Part shown: positions 1,616 through 61,700 of the stretch, piece after piece
How positions within the stretch are numbered: position 1 is the first letter of the stretch
How the letters are laid out: each line of letters begins with the position of its first letter
Assembly (NCBI GenBank): GCA_002633005.1
Contig: NMRA01000052.1
Location: forward strand, 857,235 to 921,234
DNA: 64,000 nucleotides
Direction of reading: 5' to 3'
Origin: Phoronis australis
Taxonomy: Eukaryota; Animalia; Phoronida
Notes under the pieces: generated by a model
Seen by the model: only the letters and a program-made list of their open reading frames with translations
What the model was told of the DNA's origin: nothing
Database searches by the model: none
Program-made: the position numbers and the translations under genes

Positions 1616-3620
1616 AGGTATTCTGCACGAAGCCTCAAATTTTAAACGGGCAGTGGGAAGTAATAACGAGCAGTACTGCACCAACCGGTAGACCAGTTGA
1701 TAGACCAGCCAATGTAACCGGGAGACCAACTCAAGCTACAGACAGAGCATTACCATCTGTTGAATCCGTGAGTACAACTGGAAGCAGAATGGGCGAAAAG
1801 GTTACATCAGTTCAACCTTCGGGCAGTGAAAGATCACGTACTGAATCAATGACAACTCAGTCTTCAGTCCGTGCAAGATCACCTGCTCAATCAATGAGAA
1901 CAATTGCGATTACGTCAGGTCAACCTTCGGGCAGTGAAAGATCACGTACTGAACCAATGGCAACTCAGTCTTCAGTCCGTGCAAGATCACCTGCTCAATC
2001 AATGAGAACAATTGCGATTACGTCAGGTCAAGCTTCGGGCAGTGAAACATTACCTACTGAACCAATGGCAACTCAGTCTTCAGTCCGTGCAAGATCACCT
2101 GCTCAATCGATGAGAACAATTGCGATTACGTCAGGTCAGGCTTCGGGCAGTGAAACATCACCTACTGAACCAATGGCAACTCAGTCTTCAGTCCGTGCAA
2201 GATCACCTGCTCAATCAATGAGAACAATTGCGATTACGTCAGTTCAACCTTCGGGCAGTGAAACATCACCTACTGAACCAATGACAACTCAGTCTTCAGT
2301 CCGTGCAAGATCACCTGCTCAATCAATGAGAACAATTGCGATTACGTCAGTTCAACCTTCGGGCAGTGAAACATCACCTTCTGAACCAATGACAACTCAG
2401 TCTTCAGTCCGTGAAAGATCACCTGCTCAATCAATGAGAACAATTGCGATTACGTCAGTTCAACCTTCGGGCAGTGAAACATNNNNNNNNNNNNNNNNNN
2501 NNNNNNNNNNNNNNNNNNNNNNNNNNNNNNNNNNNNNNNNNNNNNNNNNNNNNNNNNNNNNNNNNNNNNNNNNNNNNNNNNNNNNNNNNNNNNNNNNNNN
2601 NNNNNNNNNNNNNNNNNNNNNNNNNNNNNNNNNNNNNNNNNNNNNNNNNNNNNNNNNNNNNNNNNNNAACATCACCTGCTCAATCAATGAGAAGAACTGT
2701 GATTGTGTCAGGTCAACCTTTGGGCAGTGAAACATCACCTACTGAACCAATGACAACTCAGTCTTCAGGCCGATTAACATCACCTGCTCAATCAATGAGA
2801 AGAACTGTGATTGTGTCAGGTCAACCTTTGGGCAGTGAAACATCACCTACTGAACCAATGACAACTCAGTCTTCAGGCCGATTAACATCACCTGCTCAAT
2901 CAATGAGAAGAACTGTGATTGTGTCAGGTCAACCTTTGGGCAGTGAAACATCACCTACTGAACCAATGACAACTCAGTCTTCAGGCCGATTAACATCACC
3001 TGCTCAATCAATGAGAAGAACTGTGATTGTGTCAGGTCAACCTTTGGGCAGTGAAACATCACCTACTGAACCAATGACAACTCAGTCTTCAGGCCGATTA
3101 ACATCACCTGCTCAATCAATGAGAAGAACTGTGATTGTGTCAGGTCAACCTTTGGGCAGTGAAACATCACCTACTGAACCAATGACAACTCAGTCTTCAG
3201 GCCGATTAACATCACCTGCTCAATCAATGAGAAGAACTGTGATTGTGTCAGGTCAACCTTTGGGCAGTGAAACATCACCTACTGAACCAATGACAACTCA
3301 GTCTTCAGGCCGTGCAACATCACCTGCTCAATCAATGAGAAGAACTGTGATTGTGTCAGGTCAACCTTCAAGCAGTAACACAACACATGCAGTGGGTGTA
3401 ACAACAACAACCGCTCACGCTACCTCTATGACAACAACGTCAAACGGCACCAAAAACTTGACAACCTTTTTCAGAGTGTTGGGTCCCAACGAAACGAGGT
3501 TCACGGTCGGAGAAGAACTTCGCGCGGTGTGCACATCTGGTTATAGCCTCAGCGGCGCAGTTGCAACTTCCACGTGTGGTGCGGACGGTCAGTGGTCTAA
3601 CTTAAACCAACTCGTGTGCA
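1616..3620 (+). CDS. Large exon: CCP/sushi domain interrupted by Ser/Thr/Pro-rich tandem repeats
   Basis: Acceptor ctcctttcag at 1606-1615 and donor gtaagt at 3621. Starts 'EVFCTKPQILNGQWEV' and ends 'FTVGEELRAVCTSGYSLSGAVATSTCGADGQWSNLNQLVC'. The apparent frame change falls in the N gap. Confidence 0.85.
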
Positions 3621-6600
3621 GTAAGTACCATTGCGTTTATTATTGATCGTCAGTTGACGCATCTCATCCCGTTGAAGGCGCATTTCACGATATTTGGCTC
3701 GTGGGATTCGAAATGTGGCATTCATACTGAGCTTTTGTCAAAAAGTTATGTAACCCCCTGTCGTTACAAAGGTGGTCGTATCTTGTTCCCTACTCAGTTC
3801 AGATGTGATCTCTGAGATCAGGAAGAGGTGACAGTTCGTTATGATATCTTCAGACACGTTCACAAGGTGAGACTGAGATTTGTGAACTTGGTCTGAAGCA
3901 ACGACAAGCTGCCAGTTCTGCCCAGAAATCGCCCCTGATTTGATTAAGGAACAACTTGGGGTCACGTAGAGGACTTTTCATATTGGCGCTCTTTAGATCA
4001 ATGAGAGCACGAATGTGACTTCCGCTTGATTCCGATTTGGATTGGATGGACAGAAATTCAATAACTACATAGTGATTCATTAATTTAAAACCTGGGAAAT
4101 AAGTTTTATTGCCAGTCCCACCCGGCCAGCCGTGCGCCATTATTTGAATAGTTTATGAGCTCACTAGTTTGTTTAGCTTTTTGACTCCGGCTGGTGTCGA
4201 AATTCGGCCGCAGTCGCAGCCACTGGCTGTCAGCTGTCTCGGTTTTTTCTTCGCTCTGTGCCTTGTATGGAACATGAGATGTCCTTCTTCATCTATTGAC
4301 GTTTTTAATGTTTTTCTACTGGCATTATAATAGCAGGAAAGGCGTGAAAACGGTGGTTATACCACTAGGTTGAAACGTCACATCCGCATTGTTTGGAATC
4401 TGGAGGTTCATGGCTCTGATGGCCTATCCACAAAAGACCTGGGTAGAGTTCAAACGCTAGGATCTTGCTAAAAAGCAAGACTTCGCGAGATCACGCGAGA
4501 TATTGCCGTGTATTTTCAACGAGAACACGTGATTTTGGTTAGATTTTTCACGCTGCGAGATAGCTACTTAACTCTACCCTGGTCGCTGTACGGCACGGCT
4601 ATTTCGAAATTTAGCCGTTTCATAACGTTAAGGGACTTAAATCAGAACTTGTTTTTGACAGAATGCGAGGGTTTAATGCGGCTTTAAACTCAACAGAGAT
4701 TTTTAGTAAAGGCATCTATATGTGCGTGTTCTGGAGTTGCATTTTATCATGTTGTTTAACTTTTATCTCTCGGAGTTATGCTTTTGAAGGTACTTACGGA
4801 CGTGACATTGTATTTTTTGTAATAAATTCGTAAAACATAATGATTGGTTTTTGATAAATAAGCGGATAATAACGAATGTCTCGTCTGTTACTTTTTAAGT
4901 GGCAAAAGTTTTATTTTAAAGGGGGGTGGTTATGTTAATTTTGTACGCAATTTAGCAACTATTCGTTCAATGCCAGTAATTTAAAAGAGGAAGATGGTAA
5001 CGGGTGTGACCTTGAGTAACTGACATGACACTCTCCAAGTTGCCATTTAGCTCAAGACTTAATTGGTTATTTTCGTGAACACATAAAGTTATTATTCAAT
5101 GTGGATTTGACTAAAACAAATATAACGTACTTAACGAATAGTTTGCTTTATTCTGACATAAGAACGTTTTTGGAGTAATAAACAACATTATTGGACTGAA
5201 AATCCAGATTTCATAGACGGCAAAACGTTGAATTATATAAAATTAAAATGCTATTCTCTACCATCCACTTTGAAAATGAATCTTTAAAGTGGCGTTAAAA
5301 CCGTGTTCAGTCGAAGAAACTAACTTTGGGTTTAGACCAGTTACTGCTACAAAATTGGTCTCAACTTTTTCCTTAATCAGATGGCTAGTGAGTTTTGGTC
5401 TTACCAAGAACTGGCCATTAATTCCTCGAGACCATGCTCGGAAAGTAATATGAGATGCCCCCATAGACTATAGTATATTGACCGTCAACTCCGTATACTT
5501 TCAGTGAACGAAATCTGTGCTCTTACGTAAGCAATGACGTCATATTCACTAGCGACACTTGGCCAAATTACCTGGTATTATTTCCGGCAAGTACGTCGTC
5601 TGCTAATCATGGTCGGCTGTTGTGGCAGCGCACTCACTGGTCACAATACACTAACCGGAAACTGGGACAGATAATTTAGGAGAGTGGCGCCTCCTCTAGG
5701 ATATTACGTGAATGTGTTATCTATAATCTATGATGCCATGAGAAGTCGTCATGTAGAGTTTGGTTGCAATCCCATAGTGTTCTTTTCAAGTTAGCCCATA
5801 AATCAATTATGTTTTGAATCAGTTTGAGACCAATTTCATAAGTGACGACTACACACTTCTCTGCTTCTTGTGCAAGTTCACGGTGTGAGTACCTGTACTA
5901 CGTGTTTGGACTGGTCATGAGGAATACGGCGTCGTCATGGGCAAAATCGGCAAAAATTCCCCGACTAGGCGCACTTTATGAGATCGTTCACCTCGTTATA
6001 TGTGACTTTTTGCAATGAAACTGTTTGCATACACTCAGTCGAAGAGTATTCATTGAATGTGACCTTAATTACTTTAATAAGGTCCCTATACTGACTATGC
6101 TCAAGACTGATTTCACTGATTGTTTACTCAAAGATAAACTTCGAGTGTCATTTTTTACATTTGTTCTTGTTTGTCTAAACTTTTGTGTTTGAGTACCACC
6201 ATATAACCATAGACAACGCGCAAGAGAAGTATAGTTGATATTTGTAATTTGTAATTTAAGTTATGTAGCATTTTATGACACCTACTCTCAAAATATCTGT
6301 ACGGACTCGTCATACTCGAGTTTCGCGTGACTGTCCTAACTCGTGAGCAACTGCACGGTTTCGCATTGAGCCGGTGGTGCTTTCAACTTATTGTTATCGT
6401 CTAATTATGCATGAGTACCTGCAGAAAGTAACACATTCCTACACATATAAACCAGTATCTTGATAGTAAAACATGTCAAATGACTCTGCAATCGGATTCC
6501 CGACCAAAAACTTGGTGTCCGACTTACTGTACAGACTATATCTCCAAGAAATAACTGAGATTTGTTGGTTTCTACGCCAGAAACCATGTAACTTCCCTAG

Positions 6601-9600
6601 TGCTAAATTTCAAAGATTAGCCGACTGTTGTAGCTAATCTCTCAGTTTCTCTACATTCTCATTGTTGTCCGTCTTTCAAATGTGGTTCATCTTCGTAGTC
6701 GAACAAGTCAATGTCTCCACCAGACATGTCCACTTTTGAGTGTAGTGAGGCAATTGCTTAACGTTTGGCACAGCGAAGTTTATTTTCGATTGTAATGGGT
6801 CTCCGCCAGTTTTTATTCCGATATGCTTGAACGCTCACCGATGAATATCGAAATTTTTCCATGGAAAGGTTTGTATCCGATCCGCCAAAACTTTACAATG
6901 TCGTTTGAATACCTCATTGTTACGGTGCTGTGGAGGGTAACAATTCTGCCACATCTTAATACACATGGTAAAAACGCTATATTGTCTAAGGAGAACGTGT
7001 CATCTGCTATCATCTTATTAAACTTAACAAGGTGTCTGACTTCCTTATTCTTTTCAAATCATCAATCACGTGTGGTGTGACATCACATATTTCTTTTATT
7101 GCACTGTATTCTCGTGCTAAATCTGTCTCTATATCCCTTTCGTACTCTTTTCGCTCGGTGCGTTCTTCATCTTTGCCTTCTCGCTCTACTTTCGACTTCT
7201 TCATGAATGGACTCTTGTAATCAAATCCTTTTTCTCATTTAGGTATCTTTTGATTGAGTTGGTTTCGCAGCCCTCCTCCAAAACAATGCTGGGAATGCAC
7301 CCATTTACTCTTAAACATTCCAAACCGCTGTCTTCATGCAATGTTAGATACCTAATCCTTAGTACTTGATCGCTATGATCTACGATGCCGTGGCCAATTA
7401 CTTCAGCAAAGTTGTCTGTGCCAACTCAGAAGTAACAGCACTTGAAGTTGGTTGATTGGAAAAAAAAATTAAAGTGGTTTTACATCGATTTCACTCTGTC
7501 CAAAATGGTGAATGACAATCGTTCTCCCTTTAATACACCATTTGCAAATACATCCAATCTTTCTCAAGGCATCTATCCGACCATACTCTATGAGAACTAT
7601 CGGTAATTATAAAGTTAAACGGTCTGTTGTGCTAAAAATTTGAATAAACCTTAACCAGCTCACATCGTACAGTTTTCTAAAATCTTCTCGTGACGAGCCG
7701 TATATTTGGCTCAGACGAGTCCGTACAGTCGTTTGCCCGACTGCCTAATTTACACTTTCCATATCTTTGTTAATCAAGCACACATTTAACTGAAACTTTT
7801 GAAGCACATGCACATCTTCGTAAAATGTTACTTACAATATGAAGTGTATTAAATCAACGACACATTGCATCATTTTATAACAAAATTTAACCGATATTCC
7901 TGATTTTTTTCACAGCACCACGGCTACCAAGTCCCACTGGGCCGTCACTGCTGGTCACACGTAGACTAACGTGAGAAGTTTTCACCGCCTGCCACGACTC
8001 TTAAGCTATGCAAAACAGTTTTTAATTACATATAGGACCATTTTCAACATTTTAAAGACACGTTTGTTCGACTGGTATTGTTTTTCTACATCAAATTGCT
8101 AATGACGACGCAGTAGCCTACTCCTCATGACCTGTCCAAAGACGTAGTACAGGTTCCCAAACCGTGAAGATGCTATGAAATTCGTCATTCTACTATATTA
8201 CCGAGCGTGTTTTAGAAGTGACTTCCGGTTTCACGAGTGCTGTGTACTCCATATATGAACGAGAGTATATGCATTCAAATGAGCTAGTTCAACGCACTCG
8301 TATGAACCCATTTTCAAAATGACACGTTTCGCTATGAAACCATTTGTAGGATCTGAGCGTGTTCTAAGCTCTTTGCGTAACCGTGTACCATCAACGATTA
8401 ACGGATTGACGAGTGCATTACACTCACTGACATGAACGAGAACAAAGCAGTCGTACAATGCACTCGTATAAACGTGCGCAATGCACATTCTCAAAAGAAT
8501 ACGTTGGCGTTCCATACCGCTAGGGTGGTGCATTCCACTTTTCAGTCTGTCCTGCAACCTTTGGAGCCCGACCAACAAACTGACTAAGTTCATCTTTGAG
8601 TTAAGTCTAAGATTTGACTCAACTTCCAAACTTTGAAACTTTCACACACGGTAAGTTAGCCAAAATAAAAACAAAACACCTCAGTGCCAAAAAATTCAAA
8701 TTTCTTTCTTAGATTGGACTTGAGACAAACTTAAGTTTTATCTTAAAACTGAAAAAATTAAAGATTTGACTTAACTCGGAAGCGCTCTTTAGTTTGGGGA
8801 GATAGTTTCCAGGTGACATCAGGGAGCTGATCGATGCATTTCAATCAATTGACAGAAATATGCAACAGAATTAAGCCGTTAGTAGTCAATTTTGTAACAT
8901 CTGGGCCCAGTTGCATAAAAGTTATACGCCGTATATCAACAATGACGTCGCATAATCACGCGTCACGTTGCTATTGTTGAACAATGCAATTGACGTCATG
9001 CAACAAGCAAACTTATCCAGCGGATAACTTTTGGAGCTTTGTGCAACTCAGCCCTGGTAGCACAAGAGTCATTCAATTGTCTGGCGGATCCGACTAGTGC
9101 CGCACCCTCTCCTGGCTATTATATTTTTCGACATTGTTCGTCCGTTATTGTCAAATTGACTGAACAAGTTTTTTCAAAACTTTAGTGTTAGTGGCAGAAG
9201 TGTGCTGTCACTGGTCGATTTTTGGACAGATTCAAATACCCCATAGCGATTATTTTAGTTTCCGACGACATTTTTCGGAAATTTACTGTTATAAAAGTGT
9301 TTTTTGTGTGGTTGAGTAACGTAAACTGAATTTCGGTCAGTGAGTGAGGAGATGTTCTATTGAATGTTATTTTGCCCCTTTTCACTACTGAGCAATGTAA
9401 CTTACCGGAGTATTCAAGAATATTCCAGTAAGTACTTGAACAGGTGTTTTTAAAGAAAACACTGTTGATGACCAAATGTACCCTCTTCACGACTTTTTTC
9501 AGGGAGACTTTCTACCGCTACCTCTGCAATTCCTGGTGGAGGACCTAAACCCGCCACGTCAACCATGCCATCTCCCCCATCAAACGCGCCATCGATGACG

Positions 9601-12600
9601 GCGAGAAAAACAGCAAGTCCATCAACGGCGACACCACGACCGCCTCCACAGGCGACACAAACAAGGAGACCAAGACCCCCACAAAGAACAACATCACAAG
9701 CAACTGGTGCGGTTATGTAAGTTATTTGGTATGGTTTCGGTGCACTTTGCTGTATTGTGTCCTGCTGTCAAGTGATTTGGGCTGGGGAATGCTGCATGTT
9801 ACTGGTGGCAATGGGCAGTGACTTGGGGATAGTAAGGCTGAACTGGGTAACATCCAAGGACAGTCACGTGGTGTTAACCTCTCAAAGACGCCGCCATTGC
9901 TTATTCGGACCTTGTGAAGTTAGGCGATGCGGAGTAGCATGACCCATGAAGTTAGGACAGTGATGGAAAGGAGCATTCTAGACGATTCTGGCATCTTAGC
10001 GTGGATTAATGTAGTCTGTAACAGTCTAGAGCCTAGTATATGTTTCTGTAATGATTGGGTAGATTCCGGAAACTTGTATAATGTGCTTGCATTGGTGAAA
10101 AGTTTCGGAATATTATAAGAGACTTTAAATACCCAGGTATAGGTTACTTCATGAGCGTATCCACGGCAGCTAGTGGGAGGGGCCGGGCTCGGTGGAGCTC
10201 GAACGAGCCCCCTCATTTGGCGCAGTGGGCAAAAAGGTCCGCCTTAGAGAAACAAAACTCCGAAAAAAGTCGGAAACGAGACAAAAGTCGACTAACAGGC
10301 AGGAGCTACCAAAGTTTGGCGAATGCACAAGTCATCGCTCAGAACCGTCCCGTGAACCTTAGTACAAAGATCCACATTATCAAAAATTCGAATTCCCCTG
10401 TTTTTTAAGCTGGGTGCGCGCATGTACTTGAGTTAGTTACAAGAGTTACAATTGAGTGTGAGGAGGACCAGCAGGAGTTACTGCGATAACCATAGACCCA
10501 ACTACCGAGAGCACTGAGGTTATTGAATTAACGAGTGTAAAAACTGCTGGACGTGTCTCAAAAGTTCATTAAAAGTCAAGGCTTCGCAGCACTGGTTGGA
10601 GCATAAACAGACGTTACGTCGAACGTTTGTGAACGCACGTTCGAGATTAATAAAGTCGAACCAGTCTTCAGCCTATAGTCGTGCCGAAAGCAAGCACCGG
10701 TCGGTAACAACCTGCGGCCACCCATCGACTGGGAAGAACGTGACATACGTATAGTTATCCTACTTACATAGGAATACTACTGTCATGTCCAGTCGAGAAT
10801 TCTTTCACTCTGTTGGGAATGTCCCAACGAGATCAGATGAAAGAAATTCGAGATATGTTATCACAATAGTGTTTATATATGTGGGATATCTTATTTATCC
10901 CATATATTTATGAACTCATTTGCATCGCGACGATATCTTGTTGCCATGTGCTTTGACCTGTTGCTATAATGACGTCATATGTATGCCAAGTGTACCCACG
11001 CCGGTTAAGCGACAAGATTATTTGTGATGTTGAACAACTATTAAAGTTTTATTTCGTATTAACGTTACAAGAATTTTCAGTACGTGAAATATACTAGTTA
11101 AAACAATGGACCATTCAATAGTATTAAAGTTCATCGGAATGAACTTAAAAACAATTCATTCGGGGAATATAAAAATTGAAACAAAATCAAATGAACAGTT
11201 GTGCAGCAGTGTGTCGTTTTAGAACGATGAATTTCTTAGTTTTCTAGGTCTATTTTGGTGTCTTAGCTTCAGGAATGGAAATAGTATTAGAAATATTTCT
11301 CTCGTGTTGATCGTAGCATTGGAATGTAACGCTTGAAAAATGCTGATTCACAAAAACTTGAGGTAAAACTGCTTTTTCTGGAACGACGCATTGAATCAAT
11401 CTTTTAGGGACCCTAAATGAATGAGCCCAGACAAATTTACTGTCGTATGGGCGAATTTACTCCACCACGAGAATGCACACCAACCGTAAAATTCGGTCTC
11501 TACCACTGGATACGGATTGACTCTACTTTCTCGTATTCCACGGCATATTACCACGGCGTGTTAAATGGCTGTTTTATCACATGTAGGATACATGCATGTA
11601 TGGAACGAGAATGAGCTAGAACTTTTTAAAAACGTATCGCTCTGTTTTATTTGACGCTTTGATGTCGCAAGGGTGCCAAAAACTAGAATATTGTGTGGAA
11701 TTTGCCGATTTAATCGGTTCTTGTGCTTACAGCAACTGTACGTCACAAAAGCGTTCCTCAGATTAAATGAAGCTGTGTAGTGATGCATATTTCAACATCA
11801 ACACATAAAATTGTCTCTTTTCTCTCATTTTCTGTAACTTTTCTGAGACAAATGTTTCTCTTCGAGATAACCTTGGTGAACTTTGTTGAAATAAGCGTGT
11901 GTATCAGAATGCAGCTTAGTGAATATGATAAAAAACGACCAAATGACGTCGTTGTTGAGTTGTTCACTGGACCTGTGTTAACGTGGAACCTGTATGCGAA
12001 ATAAATCGTCCACCAATAGCGGCGATACGATAAAGCGTATTTCATTGTCACTATATTGGAAAATAAGCAAATATCTTGTTTTACAGCCCAGGTTCTAACA
12101 AGTTGAGAATGACATTGCTAAATGGCAAGACAAATAAAGAAATTGGAACTTGCAGCCAATACAGTCCAGCAAAACTTCAGATCAAGTTCACTAAAACGGA
12201 AAGTAAGTACTGACGCATGCCCAGTAAGAGTCGTTGTTTGTGCCGGAGCTGGGAAGGGACAGAATCCGAAGCATCTCTGAATTTTACTCTCTCGTGTTCT
12301 TCCGACTTCAGCATCAGCCAAATACTTTGAAGTGTATTTTATTCTACAAATACATCCGGAAACCGGTCATTAGATCTATTGAGATATTTTAAATACTAAA
12401 TCGTTACCTGTATGCAAATTTATAATCGTGAAAATAGAATGTCGGGTAATATTTCTAACGTATAATTTAATTTAAACCTTGTTGCATTCTTGACTTTTTT
12501 TAGATTTCCGAGGTATTTTTGTTGAAGAATGCAGTGTATCTCCGTCTAGGGAGAGTGGAACATCGACGAACATCCATACGAACAGGTTTGTTGCAATGTT

Positions 12601-15600
12601 GACCTACATCATGTTGACCTACATCATGTTGACCTACATCAGTCGACACTAACATAATAGTCGTTGACAATGCTAGGTATGTTATTTTCCCTGTGATACA
12701 GTTTCCTACATTGTCGTATTGGGTTGTGTTCCCTGCTTCTTTCTTATGTTTTATATAATGCCACAACCTTGGTAGCGGTTACCTTTTATCACGTAAATGT
12801 TGGTGAGCAAAAACGTTCGACTGTCGATTACAGCATTCATTCGATGAATGCTAACCAATTGACCTGTCGCCAGGATTTTGAGTGACTGCTTAACTGACCA
12901 ATTAGAATGCAGCATTCTTGACACACCTTCGTTTCCATGCCACCATTTTACCCGACAAACAACGCGTGACCGGGTAAAATTTATTGTTTGTTTGTCGACA
13001 TGTCGCAAAGGGGCGGAGCTTGCGATGGGTCAATTGAGTCAAACTCGTGCGTTGTGGAAAGCGCTTCGTAACGCATCCCGAAATTTCACCATTTGGCGAC
13101 GCGGTAGCCTGAACGCTTTGATTTTTGGCGATTGCTTTTTGAGGTAAATCGCCAACAAAATCAAGATGGCGGACGAGTAAGTTGAGTACCATTATGAAAA
13201 CTCCTCACCGGTCGACATCGGGCAACTCGACCGGTTTGCTTACCTCGAAATCTGCCGGAATTGATCACTATTGTCGTTAATTAATTACATCGCCTGATCT
13301 GGGCTGTTGATGTTATCGTTCTTTAGATAACCAGACCCATCATAAACACACTTGGGCGAGACAATGGAGTTTTGAAAGTTTTGTTTTGAAAGTTTTTCAN
13401 NNNNNNNNNNNNNNNNNNNNNNNNNNNNNNNNNNNNNNNNNNNNNNNNNNNNNNNNNNNNNNNNNNNNNNNNNNNNNNNNNNNNNNNNNNNNNTGTCGCC
13501 AGGATTTTGAGTGACTGCTTAACTGACCAATTAGAATGCAGCATTCTTGACACACCTTCGTTTCCATGCCGCCATTTTACCCGACAAACAACGCGTGACC
13601 GGGTAAAATTTATTGTTTGTTTGTCGACATGTCGCAAAGGGGCGGAGCTTGCGATGGGTCAATTGAGTCAAACTCGTGCATTGTGGAAAGCGCTTCGTAA
13701 CGCATCCCGAAATTTCACCATTTGGCGACGCGGTAGCCTGAACGCTTTGATTTTTGGCGATTGCTTTTTGAGGTAAATCGCCAACAAAATCAAGATGGCG
13801 GACGAGTAAGTATTTTGTTTCAGCCTGTATACTTTATTGAGATTTCAAATTTTTTTTTAAGTAGTCTCCGACAGTCCGTAAAATGCGCTCCATGTCATTG
13901 TAGTGTAAATCTTGGGGCGGTGCTTGTGCACTTGCCTCATGAGCAAAGAAATGTCGAATAATGAGGAATTCTGTTAAGTTTGTTGAGTACCATTATGAAA
14001 ACTCCTCACCGGTCGACATCGGGCAACTCGACCGGTTTGCTTACCTCGAAATCTGCCGGAATTGATCACTATTGTCGTTAATTAATTACATCGCCTGATC
14101 TGGGCTGTTGATGTTATCGTTCTTTAGATAACCAGACCCATCATAAACACACTTGGGCGAGACAATGGAGTTTTGAAAGTTTTGTTTTGAAAGTTTTTCA
14201 GTAGCATATTTTTAAGAGTTCGTGAAAGTACACATGACTGGGTTTTTAAATTTTTGAAAAATTGGACGAGAAATGTGACTTTTACAACCTAAAACGTTTG
14301 TATAACGCTTGCATTATGTTTCTCATTAATTCTACTGGATGTGCAACATTATTGGACCAATTACCAAAAAGGCAGCAGTTGGATTTTGAGGCAAAGATAA
14401 GTGTCATCCTACAATTCATTGCATGATTAGCAAAATGTTCTAGGAGTGAGGCAAAATCATCTTGGCATTCGCCATATTGAATTTTTGAAAAGCGCGTGTA
14501 GAAAGCCGATCGTTCAATAGCGGCATCTATATCGTGGGACATTCAGGTGAAAGGGTCGCCTGTAATTTTGCTCGTAATTACGACGTAGACTTCGCTCGTT
14601 TTCACGACAATATTTGTTCGTCCATAATTACACTCGTAATCGTTATATCCAATGACAAACTGATTTTTAGGTCACGTGAGCTCCGAAGCAGATGTACGCT
14701 TGGTATTTTATGCTCCTGTTTTTTGCTTGTAATTTTACGCTTGAAAATTTATCCTCGCATTTTTGTGCATGTTGTCAGGTATTTAGAAGGTAAAATCTTA
14801 GGTGTAAAGTATATAAGTGTAAAAGATTGAAAAATATCGAAGACCGACTGATATTTTTGACTTGCTGCCCTAGCCATCCCAGGTATTTGAACATTGTCCG
14901 TTTTAGTACACAGACATCGGTGACCTTAAGTCGTGAATATAAGCATAATAAGCAGCTGATTTTCATACTACCCGATATCCGTTAGCAACTGCTCATGTGA
15001 TGTCATGTACATATATCAGCCTTCGTAAATATACGTGTTTTGCCAATCTTAATCATTGTTTGTCTCCGTAAGCAGAGTTTTTAAGCGGTCGCTGATATCG
15101 CCAGCCATTTTGAATGAGCCCCTAAAGTCGTTACCGTTTCGTTTAGACGGAAATGCACGAAGTATGACCACACAAATCAACTACAGTGCTTACAGTTACT
15201 CTAGACGACATCAAAACGCATTGCATTGTTTATTAATTCAGTTTCAATTGAAAAAAAAATGTTATATGTTTTGCACCCACTTTTGGTGTGCACAGACGTT
15301 TTCAACGAGGTTGTTCAAGTAAAACGCTGAGAACCCAGCATCGATTATCTCTCTGTATTTTACAGCCTTGGTACAAAGCTGTATATAAATATACAGCTTT
15401 GCACCGATGTGGGTAAAAAAGTCGTAAGATAAAATCTGACACAAAATTAGTGTCATTAAAAACTACAGTCTTCCTTGAGTAAACAAAATTATTTAACAGT
15501 GTTGGAAAAATGGCGTTCTGCCGTCATTCTGCTGCTAAAGTTGTGGAGCGATCTTTGGCGACGGCTTTCGGCGCCATTGGCCAGTTTCTTTTTTCGCCGA

Positions 15601-18600: not shown

Positions 18601-21011
18601 TGTTGAATAACGAATATATTGGGGATGTGAGTTTAACTGCTTTGGAAAATAAAAGAATTTTAACTGGTTAGCTTTTTTAAGTTCATTTCTACGGCTTTAC
18701 GTTCATTTTATCTTTTTAACAGTTTGCTGTGGGAAATTCAAAAATGAAATATACTCACACTGAGACGCTTGTTTATTAGATGTTCATCTTTGCGAAGCAC
18801 CGTTTAGGCAAAGATTCTCGTAATAACAACAGAGAATCTGTTGTATAGCCTATAAAAGGGTGTTGAAAAGGTGATTAAGTGCTAAGTGTTGATTAAATTC
18901 AGAGTAGTCTTTCTAAATCAGTTTTTAACCTTAGCTCTTACACGTAGACGTTCATATAGACTGTCTCTTGGTCTGTGCATCAGTATTAAGGAAAATGCAT
19001 TAATAATCAAAAGGATTGCCGTTTATTTTATACTTTTATACTGATAGCACGTGCATATTTTTGTTTCGAACCCCCTTTCTCCCAGTCTGCTCGTATCAAC
19101 CTTTTATTTGTCCGTCCTCATCGCATTTTTCTTTAATATTCCATTCATGTCAGGTGCTTTAAAACACGAAGCAATGTTGAAAGCCTAAGTCTAAAGGAAC
19201 TGCAAGAGGTAGGAGAGTCGCTCGCCAACTTACTCGAAAGTTTTGGCGGCAGTAAAATGGGATTCAAAATGCAGGCAGACGACTCTGACAGTTTCGTTGT
19301 GGTGTCGCCGTCCTTTCCGTGCGTCGGCATTGACAATCAACCAGACCTAAACGTGCAGTGTGATGTCGGCTTTTGTGACGAGAGCAACATGAAGTACTGC
19401 AACGCTTTGGTAAGTGCAGTGCAGCCCTACTCAGGAGTTAATTCAACTGCCGGTGTTCTGTCCTCGGATGCAGGGGTCTGGTTGTCAAAAATGTGCCCTT
19501 TGTATTTCCTTCGACGCTGAGATGAATAGCGTCTAGCTTCTTTGGCAAGGAACCCAGTTATAAATAAAGCTGTCGAAAAGTGAATAACGTTGATTGCGCC
19601 TGCGTATAGAGGGACAACATTGATGCTTCTTCGTGTAACATGGACTCCAAAATATAAAGTCAGATTTTACACTGAACATGCTCGTACTACTTATGTGGTG
19701 TCACACTTCCTGAGACAGGTCTCCCACACAGTGAAGTGTTATGTCACGGACTGTTCATTAGTTGTAACTGCAAACAAACGCTCAAATGAATGCTTCTGCG
19801 CACACTTTTGAAAAAGGCGACACATGTTACTAAAATGGTCGTACTGGCCACAGACCGTATGTTATAGTCTATGGTACGTGCAAGCAACACGTCGAGGAAC
19901 AAATGGAAAATTGTTTTGTCTGTACCATAATTTTGCACTGCCAACCGTTCGTGGCCCTCACGGACTAATACAGAGTAAACATTCTTCTTCCGTCACGCCT
20001 CTCTCACAATAGGGACTCCATTCTCTTCAGAGCTTTACAATAGGGTAAAATTTGCCCGCATGAAAATGCGCAGCTAGTGCTGTTCGCAAATTCATCATTG
20101 TTGGTTCTGCGTTTTTAGAACCAGTGCGGAGTGGAGGGAACGTTACCCGCAGGAAGACGAACTGTGACAATGGATTACAAAGCAAAATATACTGAAGGTG
20201 GTGAAGGTACGCAGGGAGGGCTAAGTATTTTGCACAACACTGTGATTGAAAAGTTTTTGTACATCACATTGCAATCAAGAAGACATTCGTAAAAGTAACA
20301 TAATGTAACTTATTAGTAAGTGTTTTGATCTTCGCTTAGGCATGTGACAGAGAAAGTAAACACGTCCAGCGTCATCGACCGGCTGGGACTGTTCTCTTGT
20401 TATGCGGGAGAATGAAACACTCCCGTTGAAGCTGCACGTCCTTCATCTAAATGTAAAACCAAGAATTGTTCTAATAAAACCTGTGAAAGTGGGCATTCCT
20501 TGTTGTAATAGTATCGGTTTCAACATTCAATTGTGTGCGACAATTTGCGATTAAAATGGACAAGTCAAACTCCGGGGTTCATTTCATGAAAAGTGCTTTA
20601 GATTTATATCTGAAATTTCATCTTCCGCTCCAAACAATCTTTTTTGAAAAATAAAATAATCATATCTCACCCCAGCAAAAGTACAGCCGTCTGTTGAAAT
20701 ATGCCCATGTAATTGCTGGTTGCTCAGATTATTTCCACACAATTTCTAAGCCGCGATGTCGTGACACTGACGTAGCATGACAACGTGCTAGAAAGTGAAA
20801 GTCAAATTCGTTCTTGTTTTGTGAATGAAATGTGTGTACTATTAAAACTCAGCCAAATATAAATTCCATATTGTATTGACATTTCATGACTTAGAAATAT
20901 TGTTCATATTTTACAGACAAAAAGGGCGGTGGCTCAACAGCTGCATGTGTACATTCGAGTCTGCCAACTTTAGTTATTACCTCACTGCTTATTGTTGCTG
21001 TAAACAATTAA
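1616..21011 (+). CDS. 5'-partial multi-exon gene: sushi/CCP (with internal mucin repeats) + S/T/P linker + ZP-C-like domain + GPI-signal-like C-terminus
   Basis: Phase-consistent exons 1616-3620 (phases 1/1), 9503-9716 (1/2), 12087-12202 (2/1), 12504-12585 (1/2), 19154-19409 (2/0), 20119-20206 (0/1), 20917-21011 (1/stop TAA), all GT-AG. The joined peptide includes 'LRMTLLNG...FRGIFVEECSVSP...TNRC...LNVQCDVGFCDESNMKYCNALNQC' (ZP-C cysteine pattern) and ends 'GGGSTAACVHSSLPTLVITSLLIVAVNN*'. The signal-peptide exon was not found in the window. Confidence 0.8.
1813..3370 (+). repeat. Coding tandem repeat, 108-bp (36-aa) unit, at least 12 copies, spanning an assembly gap
   Basis: 'caacc'-type unit starts at 1813, 1921, 2029, 2137, 2245, 2353, 2461 and at 2714, 2822, 2930, 3038, 3146, 3254, 3362. 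N gap at 2483-2667. Confidence 0.97.
4438..4582. mobile_element. Short MITE (about 145 bp), dispersed family
   Basis: Terminal inverted repeats cctgggtagagtt...aactctaccctgg. The internal 'gctaaaaagca...gtgattttgg' sequence recurs at ~33241-33385 and 51685-51826. Confidence 0.7.
5462..5732. mobile_element. Probable MITE
   Basis: Inverted termini catagactatag...ctataatctatg. Confidence 0.45.
5828..8186 (-). mobile_element. TIR DNA transposon remnant (~2.3 kb) with a decayed ORF including a YqaJ-like nuclease N-terminus
   Basis: Inverted repeats 5877-5938 vs 8102-8168 (ttcacggt..acctgtactacgt.tttggac.ggtcatgagga), plus inner IRs near 6297-6311 and 7714-7727. Frameshifted - strand peptides: 'NIAF...TMRYSNDIVKFWRIGYKPFHGK', 'SKINFAVP', 'GDIDLFDYEDEPHL', 'SRTPSFWSGIRLQSHLT'. 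Confidence 0.7.
8901..9057. mobile_element. Short palindromic MITE
   Basis: Termini ctgggcccagttgcataaaagtta...taactttt...tgcaactcagccctgg are inverted. Confidence 0.6.
10150..10424 (+). mobile_element. MITE with CATGCGCGCACCCA-type TIRs and 5-bp TSD
   Basis: catgagcgtatcca...tgggtgcgcgcatg flanked by tactt/tactt. Internal sequence is shared with 21766-22002 and 41854-42122. Confidence 0.8.
12596..12640. repeat. 15-bp tandem repeat x3 (atgttgacctacatc)
   Basis: Directly visible at the start of an intron. Confidence 0.9.
12865..14200. repeat. Near-identical direct duplication flanking an N gap (probable haplotype/assembly duplication)
   Basis: 12865-13399 matches 13494-14200 apart from two substitutions seen and a 172-bp extra segment (13810-13981). 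Both copies abut the gap 13400-13493. Confidence 0.85.
15363..16821. mobile_element. Non-autonomous DNA transposon with ~250-bp diverged terminal inverted repeats
   Basis: 15363-15610 (cagccttggtacaaagctgtata...) is the reverse complement of ~16555-16821 (...tatagctttgcaccaaggctg). TA on the left flank suggests a Tc1/mariner-like target. Confidence 0.75.
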
Positions 21012-21069: not shown

Positions 21070-22520
21070 GTCATCAAGTTTTACATTTCGTTCTAATTAG
21101 CCGAGTTTTATAAAGTAATATGACGGGAGTAAGCAACACACTGATCAAGATGAACAGCGTCCTGTCTCCATCAGTTGAGATAGAGCCTGTATGTTATGAC
21201 GTGTGTCCTTGAAGTTTTACGTTTTGTCCTAATTAGCCGAGTTTTGTAAAATAATATGAGTGGAGTAAGCAACACACTGATCAAGATGAACAGCGTTCTG
21301 TCTCCATCAGTTGAGATAGAGCCTGTATGTTATGACGTGTGACTTTTAAGTCTTAATTTTTGTTTCAATTGGGCGAGTCTTGTAAAGTAACATGAGTGGA
21401 GTAATGAACACTGTGATGAACGGTGTTCTGTCTCCGTCATCAGGTGAGATAGAACCTCGTGTGTTATGACGTGTGACTTTTAAGTCTTACATTTTGTTTC
21501 AATTAGCCGAGTCTTGTAAAGCAACATGAGTGCAGTAATTAACACAGTGATGAACGTTGTTCTGTCTCCGTCTGTCAGTTGAGATAGAACCTGCATGTTA
21601 TGACGTGTGTCCTTGAAGTTTTACGTTTTGTCCTAATTAGCCGAGTTTTGTAAAGTAATATGTGTAAGTAATATGAGTGGAGTAAGCAACACACTGATTA
21701 AGATGAACAGCATTCTGTCTCCGTCATTAGTTGAGATAGAATCTGTATGTTATGACGTGTGACTACATGCGCGCACCCAGGAAGGGCGTTCGAGCCCCCA
21801 CCCATTTGGCGAAGTGGGTAAGTAAAAAGGTCCGCCTCAGAGAAACAAAAAGTCCGAGAAAACGAGACAAAAGGCGCAGACGCACAGTTCACGGACCTGA
21901 AGGTGATACCCCGTTGTTTTAGTCCTCCCGCTTTTTTTAGCAAAAGGTCCACTTTGTCGGAGATTCGAGCCTCCCCCCATATAAAGGGTGGGTGCGCGCA
22001 TGGACTATTAAGTTTTGCGTTTTGTTCTTAAACAGTGGTTTTCTAAACGACATCAACTGAAGTGCAGTTAAGGATCACACTGAAATTAGTTACAGCAACC
22101 TTCATTCTCTACCAGTTGGGGTTGAGTTATGACGTGCGAATCACTTAATGGAACACAGTACTGTGGCACTTTACTGCAGATGAACTTTCAAACGTGGGGA
22201 GTTGAGGCTCTCACCGGGCTAACTTGTGTCCCTTTAATGAATTTTTGTTACCGATTGTTGAGACACGTGCTCTCTCATTAGGTTTTATATTGTATAATAA
22301 ATTATTTATGGATCACGCTGAACGTCAAACGTGTTTTCGCTCAGATATCAAGTGACGTTAAGACGCGTGCCTTGATAATGTGTTGGTCATCAAGTTTTGG
22401 ATTTTGTTCCTTAATACCAACTAGTTAATTAAAGATCACATTGACGCAGCAAACTGGGTACTGCTTAACAGTAGATTACTGGCTTTTACCCATCGTTAGA
22501 TAACATTCCATCTATGACGT
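21070..22520. repeat. Diverged ~135-bp tandem array just downstream of the ZP-like gene stop codon
   Basis: Unit 'aagttttac...aattagccgagt...gtaagcaacacactga...agttgagatagagcctgtatgttatgacgtgt' at about 21076, 21212, 21347, 21482 and 21616. A MITE interrupts it at 21766, and more decayed units follow to ~22520. Confidence 0.85.
21766..22002 (+). mobile_element. MITE with 14-bp TIRs and 5-bp TSD
   Basis: catgcgcgcaccca...tgggtgcgcgcatg flanked by gacta (21761-21765) and gacta (22003-22007). Confidence 0.9.
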
Positions 22521-26492: not shown

Positions 26493-28700
26493 TCAGGCTC
26501 TGTCTGACGGTTGTTGATGGTATTGTTGCTGGTGCTTCAACCAAATCCAACAAGATGCCCGTTCAGCTTCAATGGCCACGTCGCGTAGAAAAGCCTTCTT
26601 TCCTGTCACAGTGACGCCTAGAGATCTCGCCACAGTAGCGACTGAACTGGCCGGAAAACCCCGGCAGCCAACATTCACAGAAAAATTCCAACACCTCCAG
26701 CCGTTTACGAGGCAGTCATTCTTCAGGTCTGCATACTTCCGATTCTTCCGCTCCTGTGCCTCTTCCACCCCACGGAATGGCGAGTTCCATCAGGATCACC
26801 TGGTGGAAACTGCCCAAGTAAATGATCAAATCAGGGCCTGGGTAGCCTGGACAAAGTACTGTGGGAAGGATGACTGGTAACTGGCGAGATCATCCCACAC
26901 TTTCCAGTCGGTGGCTGTGTGTAGGATGCCTTTCGTGCTGGGGTCTTTCTCTTACTTGCCTCATCACCACTTCTGAAACCAATGAATTCAATCCGGTGGC
27001 TTCGCTACCTTTGTTTGTACTTGACTTCGTCAACCGACACCCTTGCGAAAACTTTCAGTTCCTGGCTGTGTCAGTAGGTGTACCTTCGTGATGCCAAAGA
27101 TGCGCTGCAAGATGATAGAGTGTGTTCTAAAGTACATCTGCGTCCACACTGAATACTGCTCGGCTTGTCAGTATGGCCCCAAATAGCGAGGTTTCTGGGT
27201 GTAGAAAGTGCATCATAAACATATCTGATGAGGAATTTTGCTTTCAGAGGAGACATCTTCCACAATCAGCCCACTTGATTTCCCTTTGCAAGACTTTGTC
27301 CCAATTTGCCAATGCCCCCTTCTGGGCCCTCTGGACTGCTTGGACATACCTTTCTTTGTTCTCTGACAATCTAACTTCCCTGATTATTCTATCTCTGTCT
27401 GGGTCTTAAGATCTTTTGCTTGCTGGCTTCCCGGTCTTGTAGCACAGTCCTTGCCTACCGTGGCAAGCTGTTCCTATTAATTGCTCTTGTCTCAGCTTAC
27501 TCTCTGCTTCGCTGTTCGCCGACGTGGTGGACCAATTTCTGACTTCATCTAGCTTCAGACCTTTCCTCTCAAACTGGGCTCTCTTCATCAAGATGTTCAT
27601 TACCATAATAAACAGGATCACTGAAACGGTGCAGCCTATCATAATTCCTTTATCTAGGTGTTGCATTCCGGAGTGAAGTGCCGACCGTAAAACGCATCAC
27701 GCAGGAGTTGCGGTACGACTTTACTATACTCTTGACTTTCTCGGGAATGTGGTAGATGCCCATGGCACGATAAACTAACACATGTGGTACCGAACCGTAC
27801 GCATTTGCCATGTCGAGCCACACCATAGAAGTTTCTTCTTGCCTTTCCTCGCTCGATGTATGAGTTCACTTGTCACGGAATTATGCTCCAGGCATCCTGA
27901 AAAGCCTGGTATCCTGCCTTTCTATGAGGACGTGTAAATATACCTATTCAGTAATTCTGCCGGATATGATGGCTAAGTAGACCTTTCGCTCCACGTTGAG
28001 CTGAGAAATGGGTCGAAACTGGTTAATCTGCTTCAAGGCCTCTTCTTTCGGAGGAACTCCTTCAGCTTGCCCTCACTTTGCTGGAACTACGTCTTTCCTA
28101 CGGAGAATCTTAAACAGCTTCCAGAGTCTTTCTCGCAACTTGGGTCACTTCTTACAGACCTTGTAGGAAATTCCGCTTGGACCAGGCGCTGAACTCGATT
28201 GGGCTTTCTTCACAGTGCTGTCAACTTCTTAATGTCCCCCAAATCGAAATCTTCATATGGCAAATCTTCATCTGGCAAATCTTCAGCCTCTAGACCTGGA
28301 AAATCGTCAAGGGGAGTATATTTCAACTCATCGCTGTGTACTTTGGCGAAGTGATCCTCCAAGTCTCTCTGGTTTCAGGTAAGTGTTCTTGCTCTTGCCT
28401 AAAAGCCGTGAAGCGTACTGGTAGGGATAATTCTAATGAATTTTTCCCTCTGCTTTGACCGTTTCTTCCTATTTTGAGCACCTCATTTTGCCTTGGGGAG
28501 GGACAATAATAGCGTGCGGGCCTCAGATGTCAGGTGAGAAACAATTCTTATCATAGCCTCCATCTTCGTCTCTGCTGAACCACGAAGAGTGGCACGTAAG
28601 ACACTATCCAGGTCATCGTCAAAGGCTGACCACGCCTTCTTATCTGCTGCTGATGGCCACTTGATTCGATCCTTCTTTGCAGTATCTGGTGGACCTGCTG
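26493..28700 (-). mobile_element. Decayed Hero-like (RLE-type) non-LTR retrotransposon
   Basis: - strand fragments: RT 'QHLDKGIMIGCTVSVILFIMVMN', zinc-knuckle region 'KFLIRYVYDALSTPRNLAIWG...CGRRCTLEHTLSSC' and restriction-like endonuclease 'EEAQERKNRKYADL...GWRC...VNVGCRGF'. Many stops and frameshifts. Confidence 0.85.
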
Positions 28701-28768
28701 AACTGACTGAGACTCTAATAATCTAAAATAATCGTTGAGATTAAGTATACAAGAGGTCCAGAAACATT

Positions 28769-29003
28769 AAAAAAATAATTGTAAGCGATCTGGCACACCT
28801 TGTACCAGACTTGCGCAGGTCGCTCAGGTGGGCCTACGGCAATGATTACGTGTTACCATTTTTGTGCTTTATTAATATATAGGTAAAATCGAACTGTAGA
28901 GCTGACTCAAGGGTCTAGCAGTGTGCCCAAGTTTAACTCAAACCCAGGAACTTGAGTAAAGAAAGCACCGTTCACCTATCACACTAGGCCACACTGGCTC
29001 CTC
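28769..29003 (-). mobile_element. tRNA-derived SINE (same family as 361-597)
   Basis: Colinear similarity to 361-597. 12-bp TSD tccagaaacatt at 28757-28768 and 29004-29015. Confidence 0.85.
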
Positions 29004-58707: not shown

Positions 58708-61700
58708 ATGGACGAACAGTCAAGATTGAGTCTCCAGCTCAACAGGGTTCTGCTTGTTGAGTCTGTTGACGTAGACCTGGTCAAGGATTATCTTTTCCAG
58801 GAAGGAATACTGAGGAAGGATGATTTGGAACAACTGGATCACGAGGTTTGTTTACATCATTGGAGTATAGGGTAGTCGGTCCATAGATGTTCTGGCATGA
58901 GATTTGGGCTATCCTATGACAAGAAAATCCAGTGAATTATTATTAGATTTTCTCAACAAGGGAATTACACTTATACATTAATGTACACCAGGGCCACTAC
59001 CCCCTCTTCATGTCAAAAAATATCATGAGGTTTGGGTTCAGTGTTCTTCATTTCATTCATCAGACCTGTTTTGTGTGCCCACCCCCCCCCCCTCCCCCTC
59101 CCATCAAATACATTCATTCACACTGAACCTGACTACTCACAATTCCTTTAAATTACAGGTAGCACTTTACGAACAAAGAAATAATACCACTCTCAAAGAT
59201 TTAGATTGCACTTCAGCAAACACCCCAGCACAAACAACAAACAAGACACAAGTGAATGCACAAATCTTATTAACTTGAAACTACAGCTTATTCATGAATA
59301 CCCCATACAACGTCATAGGTCACACCCTACCTGACTAGAGACATACAGTATAATGCTGCCATCTGTTGATCTGTTACCAATATGCTCAACACTAGTTTAA
59401 AACTGGTGTCATCTTATTACTTAGATGAAAAGTGGTTTCTGGGATTTGGATGAACTGGCAATTATTGCTTGATACCATACTCAGCATATTAAAGGACTTA
59501 CTTGCCTTGACAAGTCAACTGGGAGAGCCTGGTCTGATCTCTAATTTGAGTAGGGAACAAGTTGAGACTAATTTCACAATGGTCAGTGGCTTGAATCAAA
59601 AATTATTTTTGACAATGGTAAGCTTATAACAGCTTTATTTGTCCTTTTCCTGAAAATGCCCTTGTCCTGGAATTCAGCAAAATTGCTAAAAAACTACACT
59701 ATTTCCGCTGCAAAGCTGTAAATCCCTCAATTACTTTATCAGTCTCACTTACATGCTTTTGTTTTGTCACATATTTTCCCGCGAGTCACTTTTTATACAT
59801 GTCGACTACTTTTCAAATTTGTTGTTTTAATGCCAGAAAACAGGTACTGGCCAGTGGGTCTCTGATTAGCTGGTTTAAAAACAATGCTGTAATACAGCCG
59901 GTAAAGTTGTTATTATTTCTAAAGCATGGCTGGTAATGCCTTGCTGCTTAGGGGGATGTCCCAAAAATAAACTTTTCTTGGCTTTAAGGTAAGAAAAGAA
60001 GGCCACGAAGTAGCTATGTCAATATCTTTGTCACTATCGTACACATTTTCTGAGGAAGGAAAAAAGTTAAGCCGTGCATTTGTGAATAGCGTATACTTGC
60101 CTGCCACCATTCTGTGGACATTGTTAAAAAATATGAGCAGAGCCGCAGAAATCACTCGCATTATATCCAGGCTCTCATTCACTCCCTCGCATACATTCAC
60201 TAGTAAGACGTTGTTTAGTGAAGAAATTTTAAACTTTATGAATATATAAATTCTGTCCTGCTGGTAAAGTTATTTCAGCTTTGTTGGGGAAATATAACTG
60301 ATATTGTTAATGCCCACTATAATCTGTGTTAACTTCACAACTAATTACTTTATTTGTATGTTTTCAGGCAGTTTCTAGTAAGAAGGTGGCCAAGATAATT
60401 GACATTCTACCATCGAGAGGTCCACAGGCATTTTCGATCTTTGTAGATGCTCTTAAACATGCTGACTACGAATTTCTTGTCAACAGCTTACAAAATGTCC
60501 AGTTGAATCCATCGAGGCAGAGAAGCCTGAGTCTGCCTGAAATACAGGTATTAAAGAACACTTTCATAACTTGTCTTCATTTGTGGAGTTGGAGCTTTAA
60601 TCGAATTCTTGCGTAAAGTTGGAAAGAGGTTTTTTATTCTCTTCTATATCTGTTAAAAGATAGTTCATTTTAGACATTTGGGAAAGATATTTGCTAAATG
60701 TTGTGTTATTTTCAATTGCTTAAAAATGTGGAGATTTGGTTTCATTGCTCTTGGAAGTGTAGAGTTGACCACTCACCAACTTATGGTGATTAGCTGCACC
60801 AAGTCTTGTGAGACGTCAAATCCTGGAAAGGAGAAACATTGTCAGCTACAAAAATATTAGTTGTTGTCTGAACAAGTAGAATTTTCCTCTGTTACTTTAC
60901 ATTTTAAACTTGTATTCTCCTTACTACTGTGTTGCAGGCTATTCTTTTGGACGGTGCTGTGCCGCCGAGGCCAAACGTGTTTATCAGTCGCGAGGATGTA
61001 CTAGTCAGGATCAAGAATGAGCTGGTAAAGATCAGGGACACGCCAGGCTGGGTCGTCATCCATGGCATGGGTGGTATTGGAAAGTCAGTGCTGGCTGCGG
61101 AGTCAGTGCGAGACATCCGCGTCCTGTCGCACTACTTTCCTGGTGGCGTGTTTTGGATCAGCATCGGTCAGGTGGACAGGCAGAAACTGCTCTTTAAGAT
61201 GCAGAATCTTTTGGCGCGGCTTGAGAAGAATGGCAAGAGTCCGCCGCACAATGTAGAGGAGGCTAGAGACAAGCTGCGCAGTGTCTTTGCACACGAATAC
61301 CCTCGCTCGTTGTTGATTCTTGATGATGTGTGGGACAGTGCAACCACGAAGGCATTTGATATACAATGCCGAGTTTTGGTGACAACACGCGATGCCAGTG
61401 TCACAGATCGTGTAAGAGGGCAAGTGTTCAAAATAGATGTGTCCGAAGGCTTTACACGTGAGCAGTCTCGGGAGATCCTATCGAACTGGACAGACATGGA
61501 CATCGACCAGCTGCCAAAGGAGGCGGAGACAATCTACTCCGAGGTGAAAGGTTCACCATTTGCCATATCAATGATTGGTGCATTGCTCAGAGACCACCCC
61601 CAGAGGTGGGAGTATTACACGAAGCTGCTGCGGAAACGGAAAGTCGGGCGGCTGCGAAAAGCCTCTTCTTACGAGTATGAGACATTAACGGAAGCTGTGA

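Follow-up and report, generated by a model that had tools for sequence, protein, structure and literature searches.

In the 64,000-nucleotide stretch of the Phoronis australis genome that was analysed here (the window), one exon encodes a sushi/CCP module whose first part lies at the exon start and whose remainder lies at the exon end, with a Pro/Thr/Ser-rich (PTS) tandem array in between. The evidence set out below supports that this is a real CCP which is split by the array in the loop following its N-G strand, as had been proposed for the place of the insertion. We hold it to be somewhat more probable than its opposite that the two halves close intramolecularly in the ER, in which case a looped mucin would be displayed on a cell-surface protein. 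The case consists of one gene in one genome, and its features are collected in Table 1.

Table 1. Features of the split-CCP gene, with positions counted from the first nucleotide of the window
Feature	Position	Strand	Basis
Single coding exon, phase 1-1, with split CCP and array	1616..3620	+	Stranded RNA reads
N-terminal CCP part (CysI 1624, Pro, N-G strand)	1618..1662	+	+13 bits on in-silico joining
Non-repetitive PTS-rich start of insert, one N-glycan sequon at 1711	1663..1801	+	Translation; RNA depth 130-198, no donor used
108-nt (36-aa) PTS tandem array, 5' block, 6.3 copies, 96% matches	1802..2482	+	TRF
Assembly gap within array, 185 N; true length likely 40+108k nt	2483..2667		Repeat register
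108-nt PTS tandem array, 3' block, 6.5 copies, 99% matches	2668..3368	+	TRF
Non-repetitive Thr-rich end of insert, four N-glycan sequons	3369..3493	+	Translation; RNA from 3375
C-terminal CCP part (CysII 3530, CysIII 3575, Trp, CysIV 3617)	3488..3619	+	Pfam PF00084, 37.1 bits
Next exon, 70-aa Pro/Thr/Ser-rich linker	9503..9716	+	RNA joints 3620-9503 and 9716-12087
Exon, start of Cys-containing globular (ZP-C-like) domain	12087..12202	+	RNA joint, loose ends at 12202
Exon in ZP-C-like domain	12504..12585	+	Acceptor: 137 and 146 loose ends map to 12504; donor predicted by phase match
Predicted exon, second half of ZP-C-like domain	19154..19409	+	Splice consensus, open frame
Predicted exon, last Cys, dibasic site, EHP-like strand	20119..20206	+	Splice consensus, phase match only
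Predicted last coding exon, small-residue stretch and hydrophobic tail to stop	20917..21011	+	Hydropathy

Stranded reads from four RNA runs carrying the same species label (X1 to X4) were employed, and two of the four (X1 and X2) support the exon. The acceptor (TTCAG/AG at 1615/1616) is defined by 136 (X1) and 124 (X2) spliced reads with the same upstream loose end, and the donor (TGCA/GTAAGT at 3620/3621) by 97 (X1) and 102 (X2) reads that join 3620 to 9503 across a GT..AG intron. The earlier note on this DNA had proposed one phase 1-1 exon with the first CCP half at its start and the rest at its end, and RNA now confirms both splice sites, 1616 as acceptor and 3620 as donor; a different acceptor had been named as a finding that would speak against this exon, and the reads of two runs instead confirm 1616. 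The exon upstream of 1616 lies beyond the window edge, and its last codons, known from read ends, encode a Lys-Arg pair six residues before CysI, which by its sequence is a possible candidate for a processing site.

On the exon itself, reads were mapped to 1616-1800 on the left and from 3375 onward on the right, so that the array interior (1801-3374) lies outside the mapped stretches. RNA depth over 1616-1800 is 130-198 in X1 and X2, with neither a joint nor a downstream loose end, and 159 (X1) and 120 (X2) reads continue unspliced beyond 1800 into the array. As no joint or downstream loose end is present and reads run past 1800, the reads of X1 and X2 show no use of any of the seven GT-type donors in this interval. 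From the right, the array is entered unspliced by 156 (X1) and 158 (X2) reads that span the boundary at 3375; the opposite end of this mapped stretch has next to no coverage, and the exon part to the right of 3375 has a depth of about 151-154, similar to that of the left side. An intron from a donor-like site at 1660 to an acceptor-like site at 3474, which would remove the array, was considered and rejected on the basis that no loose end or joint occurs in 1616-1800. Removal of the whole insert by splicing is ruled out, and because unspliced reads cover about 45 insert codons at its left end and about 40 at its right end, at least about 85 insert residues survive any internal splicing. Both sides of the array also share one on/off pattern across the runs, on in X1 and X2 and off in X3 and X4, and we infer that one continuous exon passes through the array interior and the N gap. 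X3 and X4 yielded zero reads on either side of the array or on the exons of this gene and were not counted against it; the gene is read in X1 and X2 and not in X3 of the same study, and therefore its expression is likely tissue- or stage-restricted.

Translation of the sequenced frame reveals Cys codons at 1624, 3530, 3575 and 3617 and no others, which bears out the earlier reading of these four cysteines in a sequenced interval otherwise free of them. The 3' half is recognised by the Pfam Sushi model PF00084 with 37.1 bits (cut-off 20.7) over model positions 15-56, and the 5' half alone has no Pfam match; profile positions 1-14 are exactly what the 3' half is missing, and the 5' segment provides them. 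A local CCP profile was built from 500 of the 673 canonical CCPs found in 150 multi-CCP homologues (150 of 1,042 listed). With this profile the 3' half scores 36.9 bits and the two halves joined in silico, that is with the insert deleted as the earlier note had suggested, score 50.0 bits. When the first 16 residues were shuffled, the mean best score was 40.1 bits and 0 of 200 shuffles reached the real value of 49.0 obtained on the same grid. When 115 acceptor-like starts in the window were joined to the 3' half as controls, the real start ranked first with 48.2 bits against 42.0 for the next one. The joined score of 50 bits also lies above the median of 46 for 3,096 full-length CCP hits, a set that includes the training set of the profile. 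The strict motif C-x-x-P-x-[ILV]-x-[NH]-G, which was chosen post hoc, has a single occurrence, at 1624, when all six frames of the window (127,996 codons) are read. The two halves thus display four cysteines in CCP order together with Pro, N-G, G-Y and Trp at consensus spacing, and the phase 1-1 exon typical of a CCP has RNA-supported ends and a presumably continuous interior. The module departs from a CCP in its size, as it is no compact domain of about 60 residues: between CysI and CysII lie at least 572 residues without a cysteine, against a median of 26.

Structure prediction with the two halves as separate chains gave a weak signal of 0.35, compared with 0.03 for the best control; its runs agree in at least 94% of contacts, with a partner pLDDT of at least 62. 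The mark used for such predictions is reached by 51 of 78 solved pairs and 2 of 108 mismatched pairs (39 of 65 and 2 of 126 for eukaryotes), and at values of 0.60 or below it is reached by 5 of the 78 solved pairs and by all 4 of the mismatches that passed. The predicted docking may stem from resemblance to solved CCPs, and this type of analysis is blind to whether the halves pair in cis or in trans.

The insert shows the long, Cys-free, PTS-rich tandem repeats that characterise mucin domains, with a 36-aa unit in about 13 sequenced copies, and in its 549 sequenced residues S+T make up 36.4%, P+T+S 45.9%, and aromatic residues number 2. From this composition the insert is predicted to be probably O-glycosylated. 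In both the 5' and the 3' array block the coding frame is the sole stop-free frame of the + strand. Taken literally, the gap of 185 N shifts the frame by one between the two sides of the array, whereas the 108-nt register across the gap demands 40+108k nt, and with such a length the frame is restored. Under this register the insert measures 563, 599 or 635 residues, the 185-N estimate being closest to 599, in agreement with the mucin-like array of about 600 residues that had been reported inside the CCP; as the 3' units show 99% matches, the number of repeat copies is uncertain. The unit of the 3' block differs from the last full unit of the 5' block at 12 of the sites compared, and among the 20 variable sites of the array 3 fall at third codon positions, so there is no synonymous bias. 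With the 99% matches of the 3' block and this distribution of variable sites the array looks young, and intact CCP motifs could therefore be due to inertia and not to selection. The insertion seems to predate the array, to judge from its non-repetitive PTS flanks of about 45 and about 40 residues. N-glycan sequons had been described as clustered at both ends of the insert, which is correct for the 3' end (3377, 3443, 3455 and 3488) and not for the 5' end, where a single sequon is present (1711).

In order to see how unusual this separation is, the distance from CysI to CysII was determined in 1,700 CCPs whose CysI follows the CysIV of a previous module, in 150 proteins (150 of 1,042 listed). 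The median is 26 residues, the 99th percentile 39 and the maximum 215; the sample is skewed to multi-CCP proteins and small in comparison with the whole CCP family, and for this reason longer CCP inserts could exist. It had been stated that CCPs tolerate short insertions only, and this does not hold, as 9 of the 1,700 exceed 45 residues and 3 exceed 90, all of these three in SVEP1/polydom-like proteins. The longest is found in P0126 (KAG7158260.1; 215 residues with Ser/Gln-rich repeats, 2120-2336), followed by P0075, from a cluster with Eptatretus burgeri entries (118 residues, 913-1032), and P0058 (CAB3266742.1; 95 residues, 741-837), and the SVEP1/polydom-like P0035 and P0080 have 68 and 56 residues, respectively. 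The CCPs with 95-215 residues at this position retain all four cysteines, and the retention of the four cysteines around inserts of 100-200 residues in other animals supports the fold of a split CCP. The hypervariable CCP loop is thus an already known insertion-tolerant site, and the mucin-type array of about 600 residues is an extreme expansion at it. An R-x-x-R motif is also present in each of the three longest SVEP1-type inserts (P0126, P0075 and P0058), a hint that furin may nick a CCP that is held together by disulfides; the motif is absent from the Phoronis australis insert.

Downstream of the array exon, the next three splice junctions are shown by RNA, and the later ones are predicted from phase-matched sites that keep the frame open to a stop. 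The CCP is spliced to a PTS linker, and the long tandem CCP array with VWA, EGF and pentraxin that defines SVEP1/polydom is not what follows. In the linker exon, position 9564 carries T in place of C in all X1 and X2 reads. Eight cysteines in the 3' part have a ZP-C-like spacing by eye. Two CCP-ZP proteins from other invertebrates, P0085 (XP_071844775.1, Apostichopus japonicus) and P0078, served for a ZP-C shuffle test, in which 277 of 2,000 shuffles reached the real score against P0085 and 9 of 2,000 against P0078; on a two-sequence HMM ZP-C was not in the top five, with an hhalign probability of 0.4%. Single 3' exons obtained no Pfam, PDB, atlas or fold-search support for ZP-C: the exon at 19155-19409 gave a poor single-sequence fold (pLDDT 50.5) without a Foldseek match at E<=0.001, and a PDB sequence search with it was without match. 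None of the 150 segments of at least 40 aa on the + strand up to 27.7 kb matched Pfam. The predicted C-terminus reaches a hydropathy of 3.0 over 11 residues and has no cytoplasmic tail, and the small-residue stretch together with the hydrophobic tail looks like a GPI signal. The ZP-C-like and GPI-like assignments are weak, as they stand on predicted exons and the statistics are weak. Nematode CUTL-19 is a standalone ZP-C with a GPI signal, according to excerpts of PMC7456536. A 136-nt tandem array with 5 copies (21076-21763) begins 65 nt past the predicted stop and possibly belongs to the 3' UTR.

Several other elements were observed in the window. An Apaf-1-like gene has a large exon at 60908-61834 (+) with 144 bits for NB-ARC; this exon shows at most 54% identity to, and about equal distance from, the sampled hemichordate, echinoderm, cnidarian and vertebrate Apaf-1, and in a tree with 17 sequences chosen from 120 listed matches it falls in no supported clade. 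At about 26500-28700 (-) a decayed, stop-containing region resembles, by eye, the reverse transcriptase of a non-LTR retrotransposon. Near-identical duplications (318 nt at 99% and 219 nt at 100%) in 12865-13399 and 13494-14200 flank a 94-N gap (13400-13493) and are probably an assembly artefact. A short dispersed repeat is present twice, at 355-598 and 28764-29002, with 78% identity between the copies; by eye it contains a tRNA-like segment, and it is likely a SINE.

Searches for orthologues were carried out with several queries. The 3' half of the CCP returned 38 candidates, none at E<=0.001, and the exon 19155-19409 returned 24 candidates, none at E<=0.1. A representative search yielded multi-CCP proteins (150 of 1,042 listed) with no close orthologue among them, and two atlas searches gave low-recognition leads only. 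Homologues with a short or absent insert had been called for by the earlier note, and no orthologue was found in these searches.

For the intramolecular closure that we favour, the order of events in the secretory pathway is relevant. Disulfide formation takes place in the ER and precedes the assembly of mucin-type O-glycans in the Golgi, and consequently the insert would be a flexible chain while the CCP folds. In the ER the insert, still unglycosylated, would allow the CysI strand to meet its own C-terminal half, and the bonds CysI-CysIII and CysII-CysIV would form. A random-coil estimate for 545-800 residues places the effective concentration of the halves at 6.5e-5 to 1.2e-4 M, and a value of about 0.1 mM favours closure in cis. 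Later O-glycosylation in the Golgi would stiffen the loop into a hydrated brush that stands off the side of the chain, with a closed contour of roughly 150-215 nm, on a short-stalked and probably GPI-anchored protein. In this arrangement the mucin would give bulk without lengthening the backbone, and after a cut in the array both arms would still be attached to the CCP. Its likely origin would be the insertion of a PTS segment in the tolerant loop, followed by expansion of the 108-nt unit within the insert. As far as it lies in the window, the predicted mature chain contains an even number of cysteines (4 + 8), which was counted in favour of closure; the upstream part of the protein, 5' of 1616, could supply others. 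The structure had been called a 'lasso', a term for a threaded loop, and as there is no sign of threading, a plain covalent loop is the proper description and 'lasso' is the wrong word. A more far-reaching idea, which we put forward tentatively, treats the CCP as a clasp: its CysI strand would make a covalent ring of a bottle-brush mucin of 150-200 nm or, when exchanged between chains, would give head-to-tail disulfide polymers. If true, a split four-cysteine module would take the place of the VWD and cystine-knot domains of gel-forming mucins.

Swapping in trans as the actual state, in which each CCP would be completed by the CysI strand of a different chain, giving disulfide-linked dimers or head-to-tail polymers with linear mucin spacers, that is a cross-linker of a gel or coat, appears unlikely to us. 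In IL-2R alpha the sushi domains exchange their first 18 residues, a segment that roughly corresponds to the one split off here, although this swap occurs within one chain (PMC3894449, in excerpts). The halves are predicted, weakly, to dock as separate chains, and a long insert reduces the advantage of cis pairing; the effective concentration of about 0.1 mM in cis nevertheless probably exceeds the ER level of one nascent protein species. It is likewise improbable that a recent repeat expansion has destroyed the CCP and left a relic whose two parts have lost the ability to fold with each other, with a linear mucin stalk and with CysI and CysIII free or paired with upstream cysteines. The homogeneous array without synonymous bias is compatible with a relic, as are the lack of a Pfam match for the N half alone and the position of the upstream exons beyond the window, yet every consensus position is intact on both sides, the gene is well expressed, the flanks suggest an insertion that predates the array, and free thiols in secreted proteins usually cause ER retention. 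Very improbable is an assembly or splicing effect, in which the gap hides an intron, a cysteine or a second half-domain, or the array an intron, so that the insert would in reality be shorter or be part of two modules: the gap does sit among near-identical repeats, its literal length breaks the frame, reads were mapped only outside 1801-3374 and the loose ends are the best-supported ones listed, but the same 108-nt unit in a frame-restoring register is present on both sides of the gap, depth and run pattern agree between the sides, and the unspliced entry secures the insert residues counted above.

Among open-access full texts, no paper on a mucin array inside a CCP was found, and a clasp-type mucin topology was likewise not found. 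Since Pfam sees the 3' half only, split modules are recorded as 'mucin plus partial sushi', which amounts to an annotation blind spot for split CCP modules. If the halves close as we favour, this gene would be a natural test of how far the parts of a 60-residue disulfide module can be separated, with about 600 residues compared with 215 in the longest other case found. The mucin would then be a side loop and not a stalk, with altered brush geometry, shedding and protease sensitivity, and the arrangement would suggest how a small scaffold could be designed to carry large grafted glycosylated loops.

Among known systems, SVEP1/polydom-like CCPs have the same loop split by a long, Cys-free, low-complexity insert and also keep the four cysteines. 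Their inserts reach at most 215 residues among those listed, whereas here at least 572 residues, about 2.7 times the longest, are present; they contain 10-25% S+T compared with 36% in the regular 36-aa PTS array described here, and in SVEP1/polydom further CCPs follow whereas here the CCP is followed by a PTS linker. Proteins of the CD55/DAF type consist of CCPs, a Ser/Thr stalk and a GPI anchor, and these as well as the CCP-ZP proteins employ the same blocks (CCP, PTS stalk, membrane anchor) but carry the PTS segment between domains. In the CCP-ZP proteins Pfam detects ZP-C clearly, and in P0085 it finds ZP-N as well; in the present gene the stretch from the CCP to the ZP-C-like part contains no ZP-N. 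In filovirus GP the mucin-like domain lies inside the GP1-GP2 disulfide loop, which a furin cut opens; it is comparable as a looped-out O-glycosylated segment but differs in its fold and in being furin-cut. The integrin motif EDDMMEVPY of human CCP21 is presumably located in the same hypervariable loop as the array. That human CCP21 carries this motif is stated in excerpts of PMC10281526, and the excerpts of PMC13722417 contain nothing on the CCP21 loop. The Heligmosomoides TGM/HpARI/HpBARI CCPs have an insertion in the hypervariable loop between the first strands, and a solved structure keeps the CysI-III and CysII-IV bonds (excerpts of PMC9163516); the loop of TGM-D3 has 23 residues, is ordered and binds a receptor, whereas the insert described here has about 600 residues, is repetitive and presumably disordered. 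The insert domain in FnIII-2 of the insulin receptor (excerpts of PMC2577065) is also a disordered O-glycosylated segment that is looped out of a disulfide-pinned fold, but the fold is a different one, the loop is opened by furin, and six O-glycan sites are present without a tandem array. With IL-2R alpha, as far as the excerpts of PMC3894449 go, the split CCP shares that the first ~18 residues of a CCP form a detachable unit which completes a sequence-distant domain; the two CCPs that swap there are each complete, and they contain no mucin array.
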